Shown piece by piece: positions 5,965-18,641 of a stretch of DNA of 26,152 nucleotides; within the stretch, counting starts at the first letter, position 1, and each line of letters starts with the position of its first letter. The DNA is from a virus (Duplodnaviria; Caudoviricetes). The notes below the pieces were generated by a model. That model worked only from the letters and a program-made list of their open reading frames with translations, was not told the origin of the DNA and did no database searches. The DNA lies in IMG/VR virus record IMGVR_UViG_3300002092_000171, positions 1-26,152 of that record. One strand, written 5' to 3'. The translations under genes were made by a program, and so were the position numbers.

Positions 5965-5982
5965 AACCTATAGGAGATACAA

Positions 5983-6153
5983 ATGGCATACGGAACTAAC
6001 GTACCAAAGCCAGCAGGACAAGGTGGACATGCGTCCGCTCCAACCCAAGGCACATCAACACAGGCTAAAAAAGGCGCAGCTGATCCAAGCCCTTCAACAG
6101 TCCTTTATAGCAAGCAACCTGGCGGCTTCGGCGGCTCAAAGAAAACTTCGTAA
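5983..6153 (+). CDS. Small Gly/Pro/Lys-rich hypothetical protein (56 aa)
   Basis: TAGGAG RBS. Manual translation gives MAYGTNVPKPAGQGGHASAPTQGTSTQAKKGAADPSPSTVLYSKQPGGFGGSKKTS. Fills the gap between genes and is below the ORF track cutoff. Confidence 0.75.
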   Translation: MAYGTNVPKPAGQGGHASAPTQGTSTQAKKGAADPSPSTVLYSKQPGGFGGSKKTS

Positions 6154-6619: not shown

Positions 6620-9600
6620 ATGGCTGACGCCAATCCAATGCCAACTACCGGACCCATACAGGCGTCTACCTCTGCCGCAAACAACATTGTTCAACAACAT
6701 CCATGGATGGCCACACAAAGCCCTGAGATTACTGCTGATTTAATCCATAGCGGAGCAAGTCCAGATCAAGTTGATTTAGTAGACCACACAAGTCGTGGGG
6801 TTGCTATAGGCAATGCAATTACACAGCATCAAACAGATCACAATTCACATTCAATTTGGTCTGACGCCCTAGGTGGCGTTACTAATTTAGCTTCTGGTGT
6901 TGTTCATGCACTTGGACATGTAGTTCCAGGATTTAGCACAGTTGCTGGCTGGGCAAACAAAGGTTTGCAAGAAGTACAAAAAGATTTTAAGTTTATTGGT
7001 GGCGTTTACAAAGATCGCGGTATTGGCGAAGGTTTGCTCGCAACAGCAGGCGTAGTAGCTGGCGGGGTACTTGGTTCACTTGCAGGTCCAGAAGGAACTG
7101 TATTTGGAGCAACCCTAGGTGCAGATCTAGCAGGCATGGGAGAGCGTCAGATTCTTGGCCGCGTTATTCCTGCATGGCAGCAGCCATACAAGCAATCTAA
7201 CGACCCTAAATTTATTATGAACCCAGGGCACGTGGTAGCAGATGTGCTATCAAAAGTCCCAGGTCTTAAATCATTAGCTGATACAAACCATGGTTGGGGC
7301 CAGACAGTTTCAGGCCTTACAGACATGGGTTTTGATTTTTCACTAGACCCACTTGTTGGACTAGGTAAACTTTCTGGAGCCATGAAGTCTGGTGGCTTTG
7401 TTAAAGGTGTAGCGCAAGAAGGCAAGCAAGTAGGAGTAGTATTTACTTCAAAACTAGCGAATGCAGCACCAGCTGTTGGTGAGTTTTTACAAAAGAACAC
7501 AGGAGTTGCTTTCAATTCTGAAGGTGTTCAGATGGTATTTGAGAATGGCAAGAACATTGCCAATGCTGGATTACTTGGCAAGGTAGGAAATACCTTTAAC
7601 CCATTTACATCTTCAGCTCGTAATTTTTATCGTGCCGTTAATACAATAGCTGAAGAGAGCAATCCAGTTGCCATTCAAGCAATGTTTCCAGCATCAAGAA
7701 TATCCAATAAAGTAGCACAAGATTTGGCTAAAGCCACAGAATCCAAAGATGTCGTTAATATCCTTGGTGATTCTTTGTATACGCGTGAAGTTGGAGCTAA
7801 TGGAGATCTGCAGGGTCTTTCTAATCGCTTAGTACTTCCCACTCAAACAGTAGCCCGAGCATGGTATGGCAAGGGTATCGACCATATGCTTCAAAAGGCA
7901 GGGGATCCAACCCTTGACGAGACACGTAATCTTATCCTTCCAAAAAAGGTAGCTGTCAAAGATGCCGATGGAAACTTCTTAGATGCTGAAGGTAATAATG
8001 TAGCTGAAAGCGGTAAGCCAAAAACTTATCAAAATCTTTACGGTGGACTTTTTACTAAGTCAGCAGATGGTCAATATCAAATTTGGAATGCTGCTGCTGG
8101 TAAAGTACGTACGTTTACAGGATACCGCGCACTTAGTCTTAATAAAACTCTCATGGAGCAATCATCCAAAACATTAAGTTTTGACGATCCTCAACTAGGT
8201 GTGACAATTTATAATATGGCCCGCTATGCAATGGGTCGACAAGCTGCGCTTGAAGTGTCTTCTAACATTATGAAACATGTCGGAGTAGACGATGCCCAGT
8301 TTAATATTGCATATTCTAATCTTACAAAAGAAATTGCAAAAGCTGCTGGCGTAAGCAATGATGAAAACCTTGTTCGCAACGTCATGTCTCAAATTCAACG
8401 TGCACATATTTCTGGACCAAATGAACTTAAATCGTATGGCCAAACAGTTGGTGGCAACAATATGCCAGGCACCGAAATGCGAGACACACTGGATGAGACT
8501 GGCAAGTCTATCCCGCAAGATCCACAACAAGTAGCGCTTTGGGAAAGTCAGCTCGGAAGTGCTGCTATTATGGATTTCAAACAACTTCGCAAATCAATTC
8601 AAGAAGCAAATGCGTACAACCGTATTTATCAAAAAGCTGATGATTTCTTTACTTGGTATACAGAAAAAGCTTTTGCTCCTTTAACTCTTTTTACAACAGG
8701 TTTTGGTATTCGCGTTGCGATGGGTGAGGCTCTTCACCAGGTTTTGCGCAATGGTCCAAAAGACTATTTACAGAATGTAATTGCTTCCAGTGCTTTACGT
8801 TACGATAAAGATATTGCAACAAATTCGCAAATCAAAAAAGCTCTTGATGACTTTAAAAAGAACCGTCTTGCTGAAAGCATTACTAAAGAAGACCATGCAG
8901 CCATGGCCGGTAAAAACAATGGAATTGTCAAAGAAAATGAAGTAACAAAACATATCAATGAAAAAACAGAGCTTTGGGATAAACTTCATTTACCGCGCCC
9001 AGTAGGTTTTATATCTAGCAAAATTGCACCATACGTTGCCGCTGATAAAGTAGCAATAGTCCATGATTTTCAACAGACATATGGGATTATCCTACCTGAA
9101 GCTGCAGCAGCTAACCATTTGGCAAAAGCATCTTCCGCTGCTGAAAGCGAAGTAGGCACGCTCGCGCAATTGCTACGTAAGCCAGTAAAGGGTGGCAAAG
9201 ACCCATTAGCCCTTTTTGATTATACGCATCCAAGTTATCATGGTGGATGGGCTACGCAATTAAACGATATTTCAAAAAGCACGTTTGGCAAAGACATTGC
9301 TAATGATTATTTGGCTCTCAGCAAAAACAAAAGCTTTACAAACCTCAATACTGATAAGCAATGGCAAAAAATCAAGGAGCTTCATACAGAGCGCCTAAAG
9401 ACTATGCCAGCTGAGTATAAGGCCCTTCAAGGCCGAATGATTGGTCTTCGCTGGGGAAAGCCAGAGTCTTTTGCTTCTAACCAAGTTGAAGCAATGCGCA
9501 GCCTTGTAGAAGGCCAGGATAAGACTATCCATGCAGATCTCATTAACAACATTGCTAATGGCAAAAGCGTAACTGCCGATACATTGCGTGACAAGCTACC

Positions 9601-11458
9601 GGAAAGCGGACCATTAAAAGTTATTGGTCGTGTGCGCCCAGATTCATCAAGCATGTTTAATAAAGTTATTGAAGCTGGTCACCGCACAATGATTAGCCCT
9701 ATTATTGACCACGTATCGCGTGAGCCAATCTTTAACCATTATCTTTATGAAAATTATCGTGCTTACAAGCCAGCAATAGATGCTGGAGTCCTGGATCACG
9801 AAACAGCCTTGCGCCTATCTGGCCAAACTGCTGTTCAGGACATGTTGCCTTTAATTCACAATCCAGCTTTGCGTTCTCAAATGGCTATGATGCACCGTAA
9901 TTTATTGCCATTTTACTTTGCTCAAGAGCAGGCAATAAAGCGCGTCGGTCGCCTCATTCTAACCAATCCAGCTGCAGCTCGTGATTTTCAAATGATTAAC
10001 CAAGGCATGAATAACCCAGGATTTGTACATACCGATCCTAGCGGACAACAATACATTGTTTACCCAGTAATTGGTCATTTTGGTGAAGCAGTTGCTCGCG
10101 GCATGGATGCTCTTGGATTTAAGCAGTATGTCGGCCTACCAATGTCTATTACCGGTAGCACGCAATCTCTTCTTTCTGTTTTACCTGAAGCAAAAATGCC
10201 ATCTGTGAACCCATTTGCTAACGTTGCTGTAACAGATTTAGCGCAACGATTCCCTAATTTTATGGGATTATCAAAAGTGGCAGATCGTGTTGCAAACTTG
10301 TCTACAGGTGCTAACCCATTTGATCCAAACTCATCTGGTCATTTGTCAACAAGTATGCTTGACACTATGATTCCTAATTCATCTATTCGCGACTTGTTCA
10401 ACGCATTACACCCAGATCAACGCGAGTCAATGATTCAAAGTTCAATGCAATCTGCCATCGCTTCAGCATTTATGAGCGGTCAGCTTGACAAGCAAGAGTT
10501 TGCGCAGATGACTCCATCTGAACAGCAGGCAGTACTTGATAAGATTCAGCACAATGCTCAAACTAACCTATTAGTTAAAGGCTTGTTGGCATTTTTCCTT
10601 CCTTTGTCACCTAACGTGACTAACGATCATTATACTAAAAATCTTCAGACATTCCGATCTGAATTTTTACAAATGGTACAGGAAGAAACAGCTAAAAAGA
10701 CTCCAAATGCTTTTGGTGCAGCACAACAACGTTTTATGGAAGAACATGGTGATAATGCTTTATCCTACACCGTATCACGTACTGTATCTGGTAGCGGTGG
10801 ATCATCTATGCCATTATCTGATGCTGTATTAAAATACATTGATAACAACAAGGGATTGTTTGATTCGCATCCATACGCTGCTGCATATCTTGTGCCTCAA
10901 ACAGATTCTTCCCCCGATGCGCTTAAGGTTGAAAAGCAACTGCTTGCTATGAACCTTCGCCAGAAGAGAACTCCTAAAGAATTTCTAGATGCTATCTACG
11001 TTTCCAAAGGATGGTCAGATCTCCAACCCTCGCTTGATAAATATCATTCACTTATGGACGCAGCCCAGAAGGCTGGCAACCGCCCACTGATTGGTCAACT
11101 AGCAGGAGCCTGGAAACAGTTTACTCAGACATATGGATTGCAAAATCCAATCTGGTATGCTGACTACCAAAACCCAACTAAAACAACAAGCGCAAATCAA
11201 GCTCTTGCTCAGCTCCAAGACCTTAACAAAAATGGTAAACTTGGGAACTCAAATGTTGCTCCTGGAATCAAGTCGCTCCTTGCTTCGTATGACAATTTAC
11301 ATGCAGCACTTCAATCAACTATGTATATGAATGGTCAGCGCCACACGCCACAGTATTCAGCATATATCAACGCATGGACTGACTACTTAAACAATTTAAA
11401 AATATCTAACCCAGAGCTAACTAATGTGATTAGTGGCGTATTTAAGAGAGTGGTATAA
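6620..11458 (+). CDS. Large putative internal virion / DNA ejection protein (1612 aa)
   Basis: Very long, helical-looking ORF with an N-terminal glycine-zipper hydrophobic segment (GLLATAGVVAGGVLGSLAGPEGTVFGATLG). The C-terminal part with LLPFYFAQEQAIKR is reminiscent of podoviral ejection proteins. Function is inferred. Confidence 0.65.
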   Translation: MADANPMPTTGPIQASTSAANNIVQQHPWMATQSPEITADLIHSGASPDQVDLVDHTSRGVAIGNAITQHQTDHNSHSIWSDALGGVTNLASGVVHALGHVVPGFSTVAGWANKGLQEVQKDFKFIGGVYKDRGIGEGLLATAGVVAGGVLGSLAGPEGTVFGATLGADLAGMGERQILGRVIPAWQQPYKQSNDPKFIMNPGHVVADVLSKVPGLKSLADTNHGWGQTVSGLTDMGFDFSLDPLVGLGKLSGAMKSGGFVKGVAQEGKQVGVVFTSKLANAAPAVGEFLQKNTGVAFNSEGVQMVFENGKNIANAGLLGKVGNTFNPFTSSARNFYRAVNTIAEESNPVAIQAMFPASRISNKVAQDLAKATESKDVVNILGDSLYTREVGANGDLQGLSNRLVLPTQTVARAWYGKGIDHMLQKAGDPTLDETRNLILPKKVAVKDADGNFLDAEGNNVAESGKPKTYQNLYGGLFTKSADGQYQIWNAAAGKVRTFTGYRALSLNKTLMEQSSKTLSFDDPQLGVTIYNMARYAMGRQAALEVSSNIMKHVGVDDAQFNIAYSNLTKEIAKAAGVSNDENLVRNVMSQIQRAHISGPNELKSYGQTVGGNNMPGTEMRDTLDETGKSIPQDPQQVALWESQLGSAAIMDFKQLRKSIQEANAYNRIYQKADDFFTWYTEKAFAPLTLFTTGFGIRVAMGEALHQVLRNGPKDYLQNVIASSALRYDKDIATNSQIKKALDDFKKNRLAESITKEDHAAMAGKNNGIVKENEVTKHINEKTELWDKLHLPRPVGFISSKIAPYVAADKVAIVHDFQQTYGIILPEAAAANHLAKASSAAESEVGTLAQLLRKPVKGGKDPLALFDYTHPSYHGGWATQLNDISKSTFGKDIANDYLALSKNKSFTNLNTDKQWQKIKELHTERLKTMPAEYKALQGRMIGLRWGKPESFASNQVEAMRSLVEGQDKTIHADLINNIANGKSVTADTLRDKLPESGPLKVIGRVRPDSSSMFNKVIEAGHRTMISPIIDHVSREPIFNHYLYENYRAYKPAIDAGVLDHETALRLSGQTAVQDMLPLIHNPALRSQMAMMHRNLLPFYFAQEQAIKRVGRLILTNPAAARDFQMINQGMNNPGFVHTDPSGQQYIVYPVIGHFGEAVARGMDALGFKQYVGLPMSITGSTQSLLSVLPEAKMPSVNPFANVAVTDLAQRFPNFMGLSKVADRVANLSTGANPFDPNSSGHLSTSMLDTMIPNSSIRDLFNALHPDQRESMIQSSMQSAIASAFMSGQLDKQEFAQMTPSEQQAVLDKIQHNAQTNLLVKGLLAFFLPLSPNVTNDHYTKNLQTFRSEFLQMVQEETAKKTPNAFGAAQQRFMEEHGDNALSYTVSRTVSGSGGSSMPLSDAVLKYIDNNKGLFDSHPYAAAYLVPQTDSSPDALKVEKQLLAMNLRQKRTPKEFLDAIYVSKGWSDLQPSLDKYHSLMDAAQKAGNRPLIGQLAGAWKQFTQTYGLQNPIWYADYQNPTKTTSANQALAQLQDLNKNGKLGNSNVAPGIKSLLASYDNLHAALQSTMYMNGQRHTPQYSAYINAWTDYLNNLKISNPELTNVISGVFKRVV

Positions 11459-11943: not shown

Positions 11944-13516
11944 AGATGCAACAGGTTTAGACCAATGGCTTTCTGGGCAAGGATTGGACCAAGCTTCTGA
12001 TCAAAAGAGAGCAGCAGATGCTGCTGCTGCCAGAAAGAAGCAATCTGATACAAAAAAAGCTAATGCAACTTTAGCACAATTTCGCAATGCTGCAGAAGAA
12101 GCTGCTAAAGCTTTACAGACGGCAACATTTGATTACAAGCAAGGTGGCATGACAAAAGACCGTCTTAACGGCATTTATAAAGCTTATGTAACTGCGCAAG
12201 ATCAGCTTTACACAATGGATGCTCCTGGCGCGGCTCAAATCCAAACAAAATATTTTCCACAAGCAAAAGCACCAGCTACAACTACAGAGCAAGCAGCACC
12301 GTCTGATGTTTCTAAAAATGTTAATGGTGTAGCTCCAACAATTGTTTTTGACAAAAATGGTAATCCCGTAAAGAACTCTGATGGCTCATATAAAACAGCT
12401 GTGGGCGCTACTGCACCAGACGCAACACCAGCTAAAGCCGCAGCACCAGCTGCTTCAGTAGTTAGCTCTAATCCATTTCAAACAATCACTTCTTCCGATA
12501 AGCAAGTTCAAGGACCACTGCTGCCAGCAGATGAAGCTGCTCGCTGGGCCAAAAATTATGGAGCAATTGGAGCTATGGCTCTTACAATTCCATGGATGGC
12601 AAACATTCTTAAAGATGCAGCCAGCCAAGGTTGGAACGCTCAGAAATTTACACAAGAAGTTAAAAGCTACAAAGACCCAACAAGTGGCCAATCTCCGTGG
12701 GACGCTTTGGGTGCGGCTTACAGAGACTCAACGCTTGCTTACTATGATAATAAAGCAGCGTGGGGTCAGCAATACAACGACAAACTAACCATCCTTCAGC
12801 AATCAGCAATCCGTCAAGGATTAGACCCAGCAGCATTTGGAACTCAAATTGATTTAACCGACCCAAAGGCTATTGATGCTGCATACAAGGATCAGCATAG
12901 CGGAGTAAACAGTTTCTTTAATGCTTTTTATAACAACATGCCAGATATGGGTGTTATTGACAAATATGTATCTAACCATACAACCCTTGCCAAAACTGAC
13001 CAAAATGTTTACGCTGGTATAATCTCTCAAAATGTTGATGCACTTAAGTCTTATGCAAATGATATGGGAGTAGCATCACAGTATCTTCCAAAAGTACAAG
13101 GATCTACTGGAGACTATTTTGGCAATGCAGCCAAGCTGATTCAAGATGGCAATACTACCTTGCAAGAGCAACAAAATTATATTAAAGATCAAGCAATTTC
13201 AATGTATGCTCCATTTGCCAACCGAATCAAAGAAGGTATGTCCGTTAAAGCGCTTGCTAGCCCTTACGTGAATGCCGCATCTAATCTTCTTGAAAACCAA
13301 GATCAGACAGCATTTGATTTAAGTTCTACTACTGGTTATGGTTCAATGATTACCAAAGCAATGCAAGGTGATGGACAAACCCCTATGGCTCTTGACAAGT
13401 TTGTAACATCAATTAAACAGCGTCCAGAATGGCTGCAAACAAGCAATGCCCGTAATAGTCTTATGGATACTGCTACACAGCTTCTTCGCAACTTCGGAAT
13501 GGTAACAGGTGGATAA
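11936..13516 (+). CDS. Hypothetical protein, putative internal virion / ejection protein (526 aa)
   Basis: Overlaps the previous stop, GAGGGA RBS. Ala/Gln-rich and helical-looking with a Pro/Ala linker. Confidence 0.7.
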   Translation: MAEDATGLDQWLSGQGLDQASDQKRAADAAAARKKQSDTKKANATLAQFRNAAEEAAKALQTATFDYKQGGMTKDRLNGIYKAYVTAQDQLYTMDAPGAAQIQTKYFPQAKAPATTTEQAAPSDVSKNVNGVAPTIVFDKNGNPVKNSDGSYKTAVGATAPDATPAKAAAPAASVVSSNPFQTITSSDKQVQGPLLPADEAARWAKNYGAIGAMALTIPWMANILKDAASQGWNAQKFTQEVKSYKDPTSGQSPWDALGAAYRDSTLAYYDNKAAWGQQYNDKLTILQQSAIRQGLDPAAFGTQIDLTDPKAIDAAYKDQHSGVNSFFNAFYNNMPDMGVIDKYVSNHTTLAKTDQNVYAGIISQNVDALKSYANDMGVASQYLPKVQGSTGDYFGNAAKLIQDGNTTLQEQQNYIKDQAISMYAPFANRIKEGMSVKALASPYVNAASNLLENQDQTAFDLSSTTGYGSMITKAMQGDGQTPMALDKFVTSIKQRPEWLQTSNARNSLMDTATQLLRNFGMVTGG

Positions 13517-14736
13517 TGGCCGGTGAACATAGCGGATCAATGATTAGCCAATTAAATGGCTCATCAACAGATAAGGCAACACCTACAATTCCAGCAATTA
13601 GCGAACCAGCAGCGCCAGCAGCACCAGTAGCGCCATCGGCTCCAGCAGCGCCAGCGCCAGTTGATGCCCCTCTTGGGACCAGTTCTGGAACTGGTAACAC
13701 TGTTCCCGCAACGGCTCTAACCCCAGCAGATATAACTTCTGCAGTTAATGCGGCTATAGGCCCATTGCAAAAACAAAATGCTGATTTGCAAACACAGCTA
13801 ACAGCTGCAAATTCTCAAAAAACGCTTGATAAAACTTTGACTGATATGAATGCTTTACAGCTTCTTCAATCTACTCTTAGCGGCTACAATATTGATCCTA
13901 GTGGATCTATTAGCAATGCTATTCTTGGAATGCAGCAAAACAATTATGATGCTGCTACAATTCAAGCATTAATTGAAGACCCAGCATCTGTTAAATCTAC
14001 AGACCCAAATGTTAAAGCTTTGGCCACGGCTTGGAATACTCGTTTTGCTGGCAACGTCCAGCGTATTGCCAATGGGCAAAATCCTCTTGCGCCAAGAGAT
14101 TATATTAATAATGAAAATGCATACCGTGACATTATTCACGCAGCTGGACTGCCTTCTGGTTTTTATGATAACGCAGAACATATGGCTAATCTTATTGGCA
14201 ATGATATTGCCCCTACTGAACTTCAGGATCGCATTATAACAGCATCAAAGTCAATTGTCAACCAAGACCCATTTTACACTAGCGCTCTTCAGCAATATTA
14301 TGGTTTATCCCCAGCAGATATGATTGCTCACGCACTTGACCCTAATGTTGCCCTTCCATTGTTACAACGACAGGCAGCATCTGCAACCTTTGGTGCAGCC
14401 GGTACTCGTCAAAATGTTAACATTGACAAGCAAACAGCACAACAATATGCAGCACTTGGAGTAACACAAGCTCAAGCAGAATCTGGCTTCCAGTCAGTTG
14501 CTCAAGCTTTGCCTACTGAACAAAAGTTGGCTTCAATCTATGGTGGAGACAACACTCAATTTGGTTCAGCTGGACAACAGCAAAGCAACTTGATAGCTGC
14601 TACATTTGGTGGTGCAAGTGGTGCTTCTGCAGAACTTCAACTTAAGAAACTTCAACAACAAGAAGTAAACGCGTTCTCTGGTTCATCAGGAGTAGATAAG
14701 AACTCACTCTTTGGAACTACAGCAGGACAATTCTAA
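13516..14736 (+). CDS. Hypothetical protein, putative internal virion / ejection protein (406 aa)
   Basis: TAATG-coupled. N-terminal PAAP repeats, a coiled-coil segment and an Ala/Gln/Gly-rich C-terminus. Confidence 0.7.
   Translation: MAGEHSGSMISQLNGSSTDKATPTIPAISEPAAPAAPVAPSAPAAPAPVDAPLGTSSGTGNTVPATALTPADITSAVNAAIGPLQKQNADLQTQLTAANSQKTLDKTLTDMNALQLLQSTLSGYNIDPSGSISNAILGMQQNNYDAATIQALIEDPASVKSTDPNVKALATAWNTRFAGNVQRIANGQNPLAPRDYINNENAYRDIIHAAGLPSGFYDNAEHMANLIGNDIAPTELQDRIITASKSIVNQDPFYTSALQQYYGLSPADMIAHALDPNVALPLLQRQAASATFGAAGTRQNVNIDKQTAQQYAALGVTQAQAESGFQSVAQALPTEQKLASIYGGDNTQFGSAGQQQSNLIAATFGGASGASAELQLKKLQQQEVNAFSGSSGVDKNSLFGTTAGQF
13606..13659 (+). repeat. Imperfect 9-bp coding tandem repeat (CCAGCAGCG-like) encoding PAAPAAPVAPSAPAAPAP
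   Basis: Directly visible in the DNA and the translation. Confidence 0.75.
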
Positions 14737-14738
14737 CA

Positions 14739-14852
14739 AGCTTGCCCGATCGACCAGCATCGGAGCTACGTAACCTAAAGACTGGTAGTAGGAGCCATTA
14801 TTTATCTCCCCTGATATCTAATGTGGCCTGCGTTAACTTACAGAAAAGGGAG
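14739..14852 (+). ncRNA. Candidate structured cis-regulatory leader RNA upstream of the scaffold gene
   Basis: Two hairpins whose loops each have a downstream complement (ACCAG/CTGGT and CTCCC/GGGAG, the latter being the RBS). This is the longest non-coding gap in the virion operon. Confidence 0.55.
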
Positions 14853-14859
14853 TGCCAAA

Positions 14860-15372
14860 ATGGCAAAACATACACTATACGATGAAGACGGTAATCCAGT
14901 CGAAGTCGAAATTGCAGAGCAAGATAACGATAATGGGCCTGCCCAGCTTCGCCGTGCTCTCAAAAAAGAACAAGCTGAACGCGCCGCAGAGCGTGCGGAA
15001 CTTGAAGCACTTAAGGCAAGAGTCCGTGCGACAGAAGTCGAAGGTGTATTAACGGCTAAGGGTGTGCCGGGCAAGATTGCTAAGTTCATACCTAGCGACA
15101 TTGCAACACCTGACCAGATTAACCAGTGGCTAGTTGATAATGCTGATGTATTTGGCTTTCAACACACTACCCAATCTGATCCGCTCAACGAAGAGAGAAA
15201 AGAAGCTGCTTCTCAGTTCCAACGCATTAATGCAGCGACTGAAACAGCGATCCCAGCAAGTAACATTGCTGACCTTACAGCCCGAATCAATAATCCAAAT
15301 TTGTCAAAGGCTGACCTAGATGCCATTACAGGCGTTCAAGGTAATATGGGTTCTGGACGTAGAGCTTATTAA
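14860..15372 (+). CDS. Capsid scaffolding protein (170 aa)
   Basis: Start moved to the ATG at 14860 behind the AAAGGGAG RBS. Acidic N-terminus and coiled coil (LRRALKKEQAERAAERAELEALKAR), immediately upstream of the major capsid gene. Confidence 0.78.
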   Translation: MAKHTLYDEDGNPVEVEIAEQDNDNGPAQLRRALKKEQAERAAERAELEALKARVRATEVEGVLTAKGVPGKIAKFIPSDIATPDQINQWLVDNADVFGFQHTTQSDPLNEERKEAASQFQRINAATETAIPASNIADLTARINNPNLSKADLDAITGVQGNMGSGRRAY

Positions 15373-15408
15373 TTCCATTTTAACTAACCCTAGAAAGGGG
15401 TAACGCAC

Positions 15409-16464
15409 ATGGCGACTTCCTACACAGGAACGAACAATACCGGTTCAGCCGTTGGTACATCAGTTGTACAAACAGCTTACGACCGTTATATCGAACTCGC
15501 ACTTCGTGCTGTGCCTATGGTCCGCGACCTTGCGGATAAGAAGCCAGTACAACAGGCTATGCCTGGTTCATCTATTCTATTCAATATCTACTCAGACATG
15601 GCTCCAGTTACATCTGCGCTATCTGAGACAACAGATCCTGATGCGATTGCACTTGGTTCAACAACACCAATCACAGTAACACTCAATGAATACGGTAACG
15701 CTTCACTCGTTACTCGTAAGCTCGAGTTGTTCTCATTCTCAGATATCGATCCAGCTCTTGTCGACATCATCTCATACAACATGCTCGATTCTCTCGATGC
15801 TGTTGCTCTCCAGGAACTTGTCGGCGGCCCACAGGCTGTTGCTGAAGTTAATGGCAACCTTGTTTCAACCTTCGATGGTTCGTACACACCTGGTGTAACA
15901 CAGGGTACAGTTCGTTCAACGGACACAATCAAGGCACGCGATATTCGTTTCGCAGTGGCTAAGCTCCGTGCTAATAAAGTAGTTCCTCGCCAAGGCGACT
16001 ACTACTATGTCGGCATGCACCCAGAAGTTTCACACGATCTTCGTGCTGAAACTGGTGTTGGTGGATGGCGCGATGACCACAAGTACTCAGAGACAGGTTC
16101 TTCTGAGTTCTGGCCAGGCACAATTGGAACATACGAAGGCGCAATGTTTGTTGAGTCTCCACGTATGTTTAACACCGCTGACGGTGCAATCGGAACAGCA
16201 GCTAACACATCATACACAGGCACATTTGGTACAACCTCATATGTCAACGGTACAGGTGGAACACGCGTATTCCGTACACTCGTAGCTGGTAAGCAAGCAC
16301 TTGCTGAAGCGGTTGCTGAAGAGCCACATGTGGTCTTTGGTCCAATCGTTGACAAGTTGCTCCGTTTCCGTCCAATTGGATGGTATGGCGTACTTGGTTT
16401 CAAGCGCTACCGTGATCCTGCATTGATTCGTATTGAATCAACGTCTTCAATTCACAACTCCTAA
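15409..16464 (+). CDS. Major capsid protein (HK97 fold, N4-gp56-like)
   Basis: 351 aa after the scaffold with GAAAGGGG RBS. Motifs TVTLNEYGN, YYVGMHPEVSHDLR, GTIGTYEGAMFVES and DKLLRFRPIGWYG. Biased codon usage suggests high expression, and a hairpin follows. Confidence 0.9.
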   Translation: MATSYTGTNNTGSAVGTSVVQTAYDRYIELALRAVPMVRDLADKKPVQQAMPGSSILFNIYSDMAPVTSALSETTDPDAIALGSTTPITVTLNEYGNASLVTRKLELFSFSDIDPALVDIISYNMLDSLDAVALQELVGGPQAVAEVNGNLVSTFDGSYTPGVTQGTVRSTDTIKARDIRFAVAKLRANKVVPRQGDYYYVGMHPEVSHDLRAETGVGGWRDDHKYSETGSSEFWPGTIGTYEGAMFVESPRMFNTADGAIGTAANTSYTGTFGTTSYVNGTGGTRVFRTLVAGKQALAEAVAEEPHVVFGPIVDKLLRFRPIGWYGVLGFKRYRDPALIRIESTSSIHNS

Positions 16465-16477
16465 TCTGAATTAGGTT

Positions 16478-16508
16478 GAGTGGTCCCCTCTTTGGAGGGG
16501 GCCTACTC
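16478..16508 (+). terminator. Stem-loop after the capsid gene (partial terminator or mRNA stabiliser)
   Basis: GAGT-GGTCCCCTC-TTTG-GAGGGGGCC-T-ACTC. It lacks a long U tract. Confidence 0.65.
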
Positions 16509-16524
16509 TTAACGAAAGGAAAGC

Positions 16525-16793: not shown

Positions 16794-16883
16794 ATGAGTG
16801 AAGAAACGCCAGATGAATTAATACGCAAGCGAGTCATTTTGATGGAAATGGACTTACTAAATGAAAAAGAAGCCCCAGAGTAG
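16794..16883 (+). CDS. Small acidic peptide (29 aa)
   Basis: TAGGAG RBS. Manual translation gives MSEETPDELIRKRVILMEMDLLNEKEAPE. Overlaps the glycosyltransferase start by 23 nt. Confidence 0.55.
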   Translation: MSEETPDELIRKRVILMEMDLLNEKEAPE

Positions 16884-17946
16884 AATAAAGATAGCAACTT
16901 ATGCAATTGCAAAAAACGAATCAAAACATATCAAGCGATGGCTTGAAGGAACAAAAGAATCAGATTACCGAATCGTACTTGATACGGGCTCCACGGATAA
17001 TACCTTGGAACTCTTACGTGAGGCGGACAATATCATTGTCGGGACAACCATTGTATCACCATGGAGATTCGACACGGCTCGTAACCAAGCACTAGCCTTA
17101 ATACCAGAAGACGTAGATGTGTGTCTTATTTTGGATATGGATGAAGTGCCAGAAAAGAATTTTTATCGCAAAGTGCAAAACCAGTGGGTGCGCGGAGCAG
17201 ATAGAGGATGGGTGTTGCTAGATACAGGTTTTGCATGGAAAGTAGATCGGCTTCATAGCCGTCATGGATGGACATGGAAGTGGCCTTGCCACGAAGCTTT
17301 AGTCCGTAAAGATGGTAATGAAGATTATACTTACTGCGACACCACAACAATTATTAAACACCAACCAGATACAACAAAGTCGCGTGGACAATACGAGACA
17401 ATGCTTGAGGATGCTGTCAAGGAAATGCCAGATGATTCACGTATGTGGACCTATCTATGTAGAGAGTACTACTTCCATGAAAAATGGGATAAGGTTTTAG
17501 AAAGTGCTAAAAAGATTCTTAAGCTAGATGGGATGGATTCAGAACTAGCAGCTGTCTGCCGTTGGGCAGGGGATGCGGCAAGAGCCCTTAAACAGCCCTC
17601 TGCTGAGTGGTTTGCTAAAGGTGTGAGTCTTTGCCCAGACCAAGGGGAATCATGGCTAGGAATGGCCTCTGATGCCCTTAGAAGGGGTGATTACGGCCTA
17701 GCCCTAAGCGCAGCTATAGAATGCTTTGAAAAACCTAAGGTTGTTCACTATTTACATGAACCATCTGCTTGGTCATGGAAGTCCTACGACATTGCAGCGC
17801 AAGCTGCTTTTAAGCTAGAAGAGCTGGATGCAGCTATTGCATTTGCTCAAGAAGCCTACCGAGGCAAAGGTCCAGAAACGGACAGAATTAAACGCAACAT
17901 TGAGATGATGATGGGAATCAAAAATGGCATGCGATCACGTACATAA
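16861..17946 (+). CDS. Glycosyltransferase family 2 (GT-A fold) with C-terminal TPR-like helices
   Basis: Motifs IAKNESKHIKRWL, VLDTGSTDNT, FDTARNQAL, DxD-type ILDMDE and CHE. TPR-like segments include PDDSRMWTYLCREYYFHEKW and PDQGESWLGMA. Confidence 0.9.
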   Translation: MKKKPQSRIKIATYAIAKNESKHIKRWLEGTKESDYRIVLDTGSTDNTLELLREADNIIVGTTIVSPWRFDTARNQALALIPEDVDVCLILDMDEVPEKNFYRKVQNQWVRGADRGWVLLDTGFAWKVDRLHSRHGWTWKWPCHEALVRKDGNEDYTYCDTTTIIKHQPDTTKSRGQYETMLEDAVKEMPDDSRMWTYLCREYYFHEKWDKVLESAKKILKLDGMDSELAAVCRWAGDAARALKQPSAEWFAKGVSLCPDQGESWLGMASDALRRGDYGLALSAAIECFEKPKVVHYLHEPSAWSWKSYDIAAQAAFKLEELDAAIAFAQEAYRGKGPETDRIKRNIEMMMGIKNGMRSRT

Positions 17947-18364: not shown

Positions 18365-18516
18365 AGAAACATCCAGGATTTGCAAAGGTGCAAGCATCTA
18401 TTGCAAAAAAAGAAGGAGTGTCTACAAAAGCAGCGGGAGCTATTCTAGCATCTGCTACACGTAAAGCATCTCCAGCAGCCAAGAAAGCCAACCCTAAACT
18501 AAAGAAGGTGAAATAA
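18361..18516 (+). CDS. Small highly basic protein (51 aa)
   Basis: AAGGAG RBS and ATGA overlap. Manual translation gives MKKHPGFAKVQASIAKKEGVSTKAAGAILASATRKASPAAKKANPKLKKVK. Confidence 0.8.
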   Translation: MKKHPGFAKVQASIAKKEGVSTKAAGAILASATRKASPAAKKANPKLKKVK

Positions 18517-18641
18517 TGTGTAAAGAATGCGGATGCGATAAGACACTTATCGGCAATGTAGAAGGACATCTTTCAGGTCGCCCAAGCGATCCATACGGTT
18601 CATACGAAGGTGTCGGCGGCACTAACAAGGGCTCAAAGTAA
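18516..18641 (+). CDS. Micro-protein (41 aa) with N-terminal CxxCGC motif
   Basis: TAATG-coupled with AAGGTG RBS. Manual translation gives MCKECGCDKTLIGNVEGHLSGRPSDPYGSYEGVGGTNKGSK. Confidence 0.7.
   Translation: MCKECGCDKTLIGNVEGHLSGRPSDPYGSYEGVGGTNKGSK

Follow-up and report, generated by a model that had tools for sequence, protein, structure and literature searches.

A widespread and uncatalogued phage leader RNA with two tandem pseudoknots is predicted to cover the start site of a probable head-scaffold gene

The viral record IMGVR_UViG_3300002092_000171 (Duplodnaviria; Caudoviricetes), all 26,152 nucleotides (nt) of which we refer to as the window, contains a structured leader RNA in the 123-nt gap (14737–14859) directly before a probable head-scaffold gene. 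Comparison with homologous leaders shows a widespread, uncatalogued phage RNA that is of a known type but built to a plan of its own: a 5′ stem (P1) and an H-type pseudoknot (PK1) are followed by a hairpin (P2), whose internal loop is an invariant AGC/NGG, and by a second pseudoknot (PK2) between the P2 loop and the Shine-Dalgarno (SD) sequence. The structure is almost certainly real and very probably has a role in translation initiation; the comparison shows that selection maintains an RNA fold on the + strand, that this fold is tied to one gene and that its complementarity tracks both the SD and codon 2. Our preferred reading, to which we give a probability of roughly 45%, is that the leader switches translation off when free scaffold protein closes it, by analogy to phage P22.

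Leaders were taken upstream of homologous genes and kept if less than 93% identical, giving 263 non-redundant leaders in total: 58 from clade 1 (153 usable of 161 loci, window included), 53 from clade 2 (of 80), 25 from clade 4 (78 usable of 80), 15 from the Beephvirinae group (of 24, with three truncated loci excluded), 44 from a clade related to Beephvirinae (82 usable of 88) and 68 from the 120 loci of a pattern-derived set. The window leader alone folds no better than its shuffles (z −0.94), so the case rests on the homologs. In an unedited MAFFT alignment of the 111 clade 1 and 2 leaders, tested against our own R-scape-like, phylogeny-aware null rather than R-scape itself, seven column pairs scored higher than any of the 583,800 null values, and every one is a stem pair: 14747-14762 in P1, 14755-14784 and 14756-14783 in PK1, and 14791-14828, 14792-14827, 14796-14823 and 14798-14821 in P2. 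Over PK1 and P2 together, 94.2% of cells pair, compared with 79.7% in shuffles and 23–42% when slid. The original prediction had proposed two pseudoknotted hairpins from the window alone and left the decision to conservation; every segment it named lies at the position given and is complementary, and homologous leaders support the structure, with P1, PK1 and P2 all covarying beyond the null. A structure on the minus strand was excluded, as G-U pairs such as U14789-G14830 (98 of 219 leaders) work solely on the + strand.

P1 (14741–14770, + strand) is a stem of variable sequence with the core CCGAT (14746–50)/ATCGG (14759–63), and it is probably closed by the near-invariant C14741 and the invariant G14770. 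Its cognate arms pair at −10.7 kcal/mol, as against −5.3 kcal/mol for swapped arms. The core had been identified as the first hairpin together with an outer AGCT/AGCT helix, and whereas the core stands and contains a covarying pair, the outer helix appears in the minimum-energy fold of the window but is not kept in homologs. In PK1 (14753–14786, + strand), ACCAG (14753–57) pairs with CTGGT (14782–86), exactly as first proposed, and C14758 additionally pairs with G14780 across the bulged A14781. The four-pair core of PK1 is present in 218 of 219 leaders in seven sequence versions, and 189 of these 218 also form the extra pair over the bulged base. One base separates PK1 from P2 in all 203 parsed leaders of other clades, compared with 6–9 nt in the Beephvirinae group, and this variable spacing suggests two separate modules. 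It also bears on whether the leader could have a role outside translation, as a self-cleaving RNA or in virion assembly, a possibility that the two pseudoknots and sharp 5′ boundary might bring to mind but that we find barely credible, given that the knots are tandem, not nested, that the spacer between them varies in the Beephvirinae group, that the 3′ parts follow the SD and codon 2, and that the phage terminase is ordinary.

P2 (14788–14831, + strand) consists of a basal stem, P2a (14788–92/14827–31), two upper stems (14796–800/14819–23 and 14803–06/14813–16) and an apical loop (14807–12). In each of 219 leaders, all five pairs of P2a are canonical, and above them lies the invariant internal loop, with AGC (14793–95) opposite NGG (14824–26). 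The second hairpin of the original prediction is thus present and covarying, but its register had to be mended to GTAGG (14788–92)/CCTGC (14827–31) and C14796-G14823, which leaves AGC opposite NGG.

In PK2 (14808–14852, + strand), the loop sequence CCCCT (14808–12) pairs with the SD region AGGGAG (14847–52) through C14809-G14850, C14810-G14849, C14811-G14848 and U14812-A14847, and we infer a further pair, C14808-G14852, across the bulged A14851. That the loop can pair with the SD had been anticipated, but in a register shifted by one from this one: of 151 leaders, 111 keep the earlier pair 14806-14852, 106 keep 14807-14851 and 137 keep 14810-14848, the earlier register fails in 14 of 15 Beephvirinae-group leaders, and C14806 closes the apical loop in the predicted fold. 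Pair 14811-14848 is C-G in 247 of 263 leaders and U-A in the other 16, making it canonical in 263/263 after a fix of the alignment anchor (149/151 before). All 247 leaders with an SD starting with G have at least four loop Cs, and all 16 with an SD starting with A have a CCCUA loop instead, with the register in 2 of these 16 having been chosen with the help of the SD. The 16 comprise 14 Beephvirinae-type leaders and the loci L471 and L569; as the N-terminus and model score of L471 place it in clade 4, two, perhaps three, independent compensatory events appear to have taken place in PK2. Pair 14812-14847 is canonical in 166 of 263 leaders, and a loop U at this position faces an A in 67 of 68.

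Downstream of PK2, a third element, P3 (14853–14865, + strand), is a TGCCA/TGGCA hairpin over the start codon and codon 2. Outside the Beephvirinae group, 244 of 248 leaders can form it, the spacer between SD and start codon being complementary to the start codon and codon 2; the versions include UGCC/GGCA, UGGC/GCCA, GGAC/GUCC, GUUGCU/AGCAAC, GGUC/GACC and GAGUC/GACUC. As controls, exchanging spacers between leaders with different second codons left a pairing in 622 of 2791 combinations, and 4 of 22 other window genes have such a pairing. Only 1 of the 15 Beephvirinae-group leaders has P3, which must therefore be dispensable there. P3 is an addition to the original prediction, as are the invariant AGC/NGG loop and the way the leader overlaps tRNA 3′ ends, described below. 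The maintenance of P3 through so many sequence versions would suit a fixed damper without any ligand, in which PK2 and P3 hold scaffold output constantly low relative to capsid and PK1 acts as a standby site for S1 and the 30S subunit as in tisB mRNA. The 5′ pseudoknot, the A-rich linker (909 of 1707 bases are A) and the covered ribosome binding site (RBS) do resemble the tisB layout described in PMC7708055. We nevertheless consider a damper unlikely, as it does not require an internal loop that is invariant across all clades, and a weaker SD would presumably be a simpler route to the same effect.

A descriptor consisting of PK1, a P2a of at least four pairs, AGC, the C-run, GG and the SD parses 263 of 263 leaders, cultured Streptomyces Beephvirinae included, a figure that shows that no leader is without the invariant bases, since these are built into the descriptor. 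Of the window's 1553 start codons it accepts only the true one, at 14860, and of 1646 in six control loci it accepts none. A model of clades 1 and 2, R1, detects clade 4 at E values below 2e-11 and the bridging locus L273 at ~1e-7; the membership of the Beephvirinae leaders rests on their position before a homologous gene, their shared topology and L273. In five distant capsid relatives, R1 found nothing convincing (best 7.8 bits). We found no description of this RNA in the literature that could be compared, which did not extend to the IMG/VR DNA-virus alignments of PMC10690425 or the supplement of PMC5737381, and it could be one of the 8495 IMG/VR candidates in PMC10690425. Rfam holds no family matching the window leader, in line with the original suggestion of a possibly undescribed RNA family, nor did Rfam match any of 18 loci drawn from across the clades. 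From 5 of its 64 parts, we estimate that IMG/VR contains ~1900 matching stretches.

The family is also tied to a single gene. A protein-blind pattern scan of viral contigs returned 120 loci, and all 116 readable downstream open reading frames (ORFs) match the scaffold profile, with the remaining four being two loci with the same N-terminus and two at a contig edge. A conserved structure is thus found in the leader of one fixed gene, where it covers the RBS, as expected of an autogenous translational operator of the T4 gene 32 or P22 gene 8 kind. A similar pattern, covering clades 1, 2 and 4 only, gave two matches in 185,579 prokaryote genomes: one, L354, is a 5.8-kb contig of an Actinomycetota genome bin that is in fact a clade 4 phage fragment with leader, scaffold and capsid genes in the order seen here, and the other fails the descriptor and is an apparent chance match. 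The leader family is essentially phage-only. Several compact riboswitches consist of a hairpin that carries a conserved internal loop and base-pairs with the SD through its tip. The leader shares this layout, including the loop-to-SD pairing that characterizes SD-pseudoknot riboswitches, albeit on few independent events, and PK2 is marginal alone, so the P2 loop and PK2 could be imagined to enclose a host metabolite or a signalling nucleotide in a pocket and to time head assembly. Such a small-molecule riboswitch is very improbable, however, for an RNA that this search did not find on bacterial chromosomes, that precedes one fixed structural gene and that has no Rfam match.

The 5′ end of the leader coincides with tRNA genes in one part of the family. 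Among 59 Beephvirinae-side leaders, we detected an upstream T-arm in 54 and recognized three more by eye, leaving two without any. In 54 of 54 leaders with a detected T-arm, P1 begins 1–3 nt from the first C of the tRNA CC(A), and the identity of the tRNA varies over at least six types (Val, Met, Asn, Ile, Trp and Pro). In phage Manuel (MG518519), for example, the leader lies between tRNA-Val and gene 34, which is followed by the capsid gene, 35. No tRNA precedes the leader in the window, and in the other clades a tRNA-like element lies upstream in just 2 of 204 leaders. In clade 1, L129 (1253–1334) and L131 (457–538) carry an 82-nt tRNA-like element directly 5′ of the leader, which matches the tRNA-like domain of transfer-messenger RNA at 38.2 bits (cut-off 47 bits) and is not called by ARAGORN. 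A promoter just upstream of the leader was excluded: promoter-like sites are no commoner there than in shuffles, and the Beephvirinae upstream sequence is tRNA.

According to PMC4681348, most CCA-encoding tRNAs of S. coelicolor are cut between the two Cs and RNase J is present, and mycobacterial RNase E cuts before cytidines (PMC10641625). A cut between Cs of the S. coelicolor type would start the leader on its paired C. These enzymes and the 1–3 nt distance across at least six tRNA types raise the possibility that mRNA processing and stability are the main job of the leader, with a cut at the CC opening P1 freeing the scaffold-capsid message, PK1 shielding it from 5′-to-3′ decay and SD pairing being secondary. 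Such processing is compatible with the other readings, but as the main job it is improbable: it leaves PK2, P3 and the internal loop unexplained, it has a tRNA-like element to act on in very few leaders of other clades, the tRNAs may simply insert into the sole free gap, and 5′-to-3′ decay is suggested not to be dominant in S. coelicolor (PMC4681348).

The gene downstream of the leader (14860–15372, + strand) encodes a 170-amino-acid (aa) protein of phrog_7813 (unknown function) directly 5′ of the capsid gene. Its predicted model contains a long helix (residues 26–67) plus short helices, and its nearest named Atlas clusters are the scaffolds PF06810, which we take to be GP20, and PF14265, with a score of 0.92 and 143 shared features for the PF06810 cluster, the protein itself being without a Pfam hit. 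The top Foldseek hit is a scaffolding protein as well (E 0.18, not significant). On the basis of its position before the capsid gene, the long-helix model and the nearest Atlas clusters, the protein is probably a scaffold; the original prediction had taken this identity as given, and it proves to rest on position and weak similarity. Residues L30, R31, G68, W90 and F98 are kept in 151 of 151 homologs. These relatives were found through alignments and the capsid, as a single-protein scan of viral contigs and tblastn against phage records returned nothing. An alternative start at 14821 was excluded, as homologs start at the equivalent of 14860.

Wyckoff and Casjens reportedly described in 1985 that the scaffolding protein of P22 (gene 8) autoregulates its own synthesis, and for a phage-only element on the RBS of a scaffold gene, feedback by free scaffold is the explanation that fits best. 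In the closed form of the proposed switch, the SD would be locked in PK2 and the start codon in P3, blocking initiation. With just 4–6 pairs, PK2 is probably too short to hold alone and would need a stabilizer, and the P2 loop with its invariant AGC/NGG bases is the likely place for one to bind. Free scaffold would hold the closed fold and switch off its own synthesis until capsid protein draws scaffold into proheads, which would lower the free pool and open the site. As PK1 starts at the tRNA CC(A) and lies 6–9 nt from P2 in Beephvirinae-side phages, it probably forms a module of its own, at the start of a processed scaffold-capsid message. The ligand could instead be another phage protein, most plausibly unassembled capsid protein, that opens or closes PK2 to match scaffold to capsid supply; the phage-only distribution agrees with this, as does the greater conservation of capsid than of scaffold across clades sharing the invariant loop. 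We regard it as distinctly unlikely, since the leader sits on the RBS of the scaffold gene itself and in P22 it is said to be scaffold, not coat, that acts as the repressor.

Several observations weigh against feedback by free scaffold. The switch and its ligand binding are predictions from sequence, and the invariant loop bases could be making RNA-RNA contacts instead. No significant profile (PHROG function, Pfam) or Foldseek hit supports the scaffold name of the 170-aa protein. Within PK2, pair 14812-14847 is non-canonical in 97 of 263 leaders, mostly as G-A or A-A, and a sign test on independent pairs is not significant, with few independent changes and an invariant core. P3 is missing from all 14 Beephvirinae-type leaders, and R1 scores ten Beephvirinae leaders at just 9–14 bits, at the correct place, and leaves four of 15 unreported.

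Combining the two modules, we tentatively suggest, as a doubtful extension, that host tRNA-processing enzymes cut at the CC(A) opening P1 and release a knot-capped head message, on which the second knot and start-codon hairpin would read free scaffold (or a small molecule) via the AGC/NGG loop. If true, this would be a structurally defined scaffold-sensing switch common to a very large phage group with cultured members. The leader also suggests that phage tRNA genes may serve additionally to mark sites of processing. The balance of scaffold and capsid in tailed phages is poorly explained. This leader is a defined RNA for which compensatory variants exist in nature, and the family's cultured members on laboratory Streptomyces make the feedback idea directly testable.

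The window as a whole contains a head-tail operon of terminase, portal, several genes of unknown function, the scaffold-like ORF, capsid, tail genes and endolysin. Upstream of the leader, a gene for a 406-aa protein of phrog_8424 (unknown function; 13516–14736, + strand) ends with its stop codon 16 nt 5′ of PK1, within the 13–27 nt seen in homologs. A short ORF of about 41 codons (~18516–18641) overlaps the preceding stop codon and fills an otherwise longer gap, so the leader lies in the longest non-coding gap, as originally described, only if this ORF counts as a gene. The major capsid protein gene (15409–16464, + strand; phrog_1357, PF13252) is ~50% identical to its closest cultured relatives, the capsids of Streptomyces Beephvirinae such as Manuel, Immanuel3 and FlowerPower, and the host of the window phage is presumably an actinobacterium. 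Cluster BF is listed among podoviruses rich in tRNA genes. The capsid SD (15387–15401) lies within a weak hairpin, and other clades have different weak hairpins there, a hint that capsid translation may be coupled to that of the scaffold gene. Past the capsid stop codon is a strong GC-rich hairpin without a clear U tract (~16479–16509), at the equivalent position of which Abafar has an annotated terminator. We also observed a family 2 glycosyltransferase gene within the structural operon (16861–17946), a 1612-aa ORF without PHROG or Pfam match between portal and head genes (6620–11458), and a perfect sigma-70 consensus promoter (12/12, with TG) on the minus strand at 14261–14233, inside the 406-aa gene and directed against the operon, away from the leader.

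Among known double pseudoknots, HDV-like (hepatitis delta virus) ribozymes are nested, and such a ribozyme was excluded for the leader, whose knots are tandem and which has no Rfam hit. Mu-gpT-DE (RF03012) is, like this RNA, a pseudoknotted leader in a phage head operon that ends at the SD, but it is ~80 nt long and mostly precedes a capsid-accessory gene; in the window, RF03012 matches only at 5966–5985, just 3′ of the portal gene, where a sub-threshold 14 bits is probably chance, with nothing at the leader. The E. coli tisB leader, likened here by layout, sits on a processed mRNA, with a pseudoknot at the 5′ end and a sequestered RBS further along, and differs in belonging to a toxin-antitoxin system with an antisense RNA and in having no loop-SD knot in the available part of its description (PMC7708055). 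The T4 gene 32 operator is a leader pseudoknot upstream of a gene whose product binds it and controls translation (PMC10690425); gp32 is a single-stranded nucleic-acid binding protein, whereas here there are two tandem knots, one of which uses the SD itself, plus a start-codon hairpin. Like this leader, GP20-a (RF02991), GP20-b (RF03003) and six further candidates are candidate cis-regulatory RNAs, described in PMC10690425 as directly upstream of phage GP20 genes, and PF06810 is the nearest named Atlas cluster of the 170-aa protein. That protein lacks a PF06810 hit, RF02991 and RF03003 have no match in the window at E ≤ 10, and the six, set apart by their description only, have other bacteria as hosts (PMC10690425); the leader nonetheless suggests a testable function for the orphan motifs upstream of GP20. 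P22 is an unrelated phage of an unrelated host, and what we find here is a defined, covarying RNA fold with a predicted function, but in both phages the scaffold gene lies directly before the coat gene, and feedback by free scaffold, as for P22 gene 8, is the logic that we propose for the leader.
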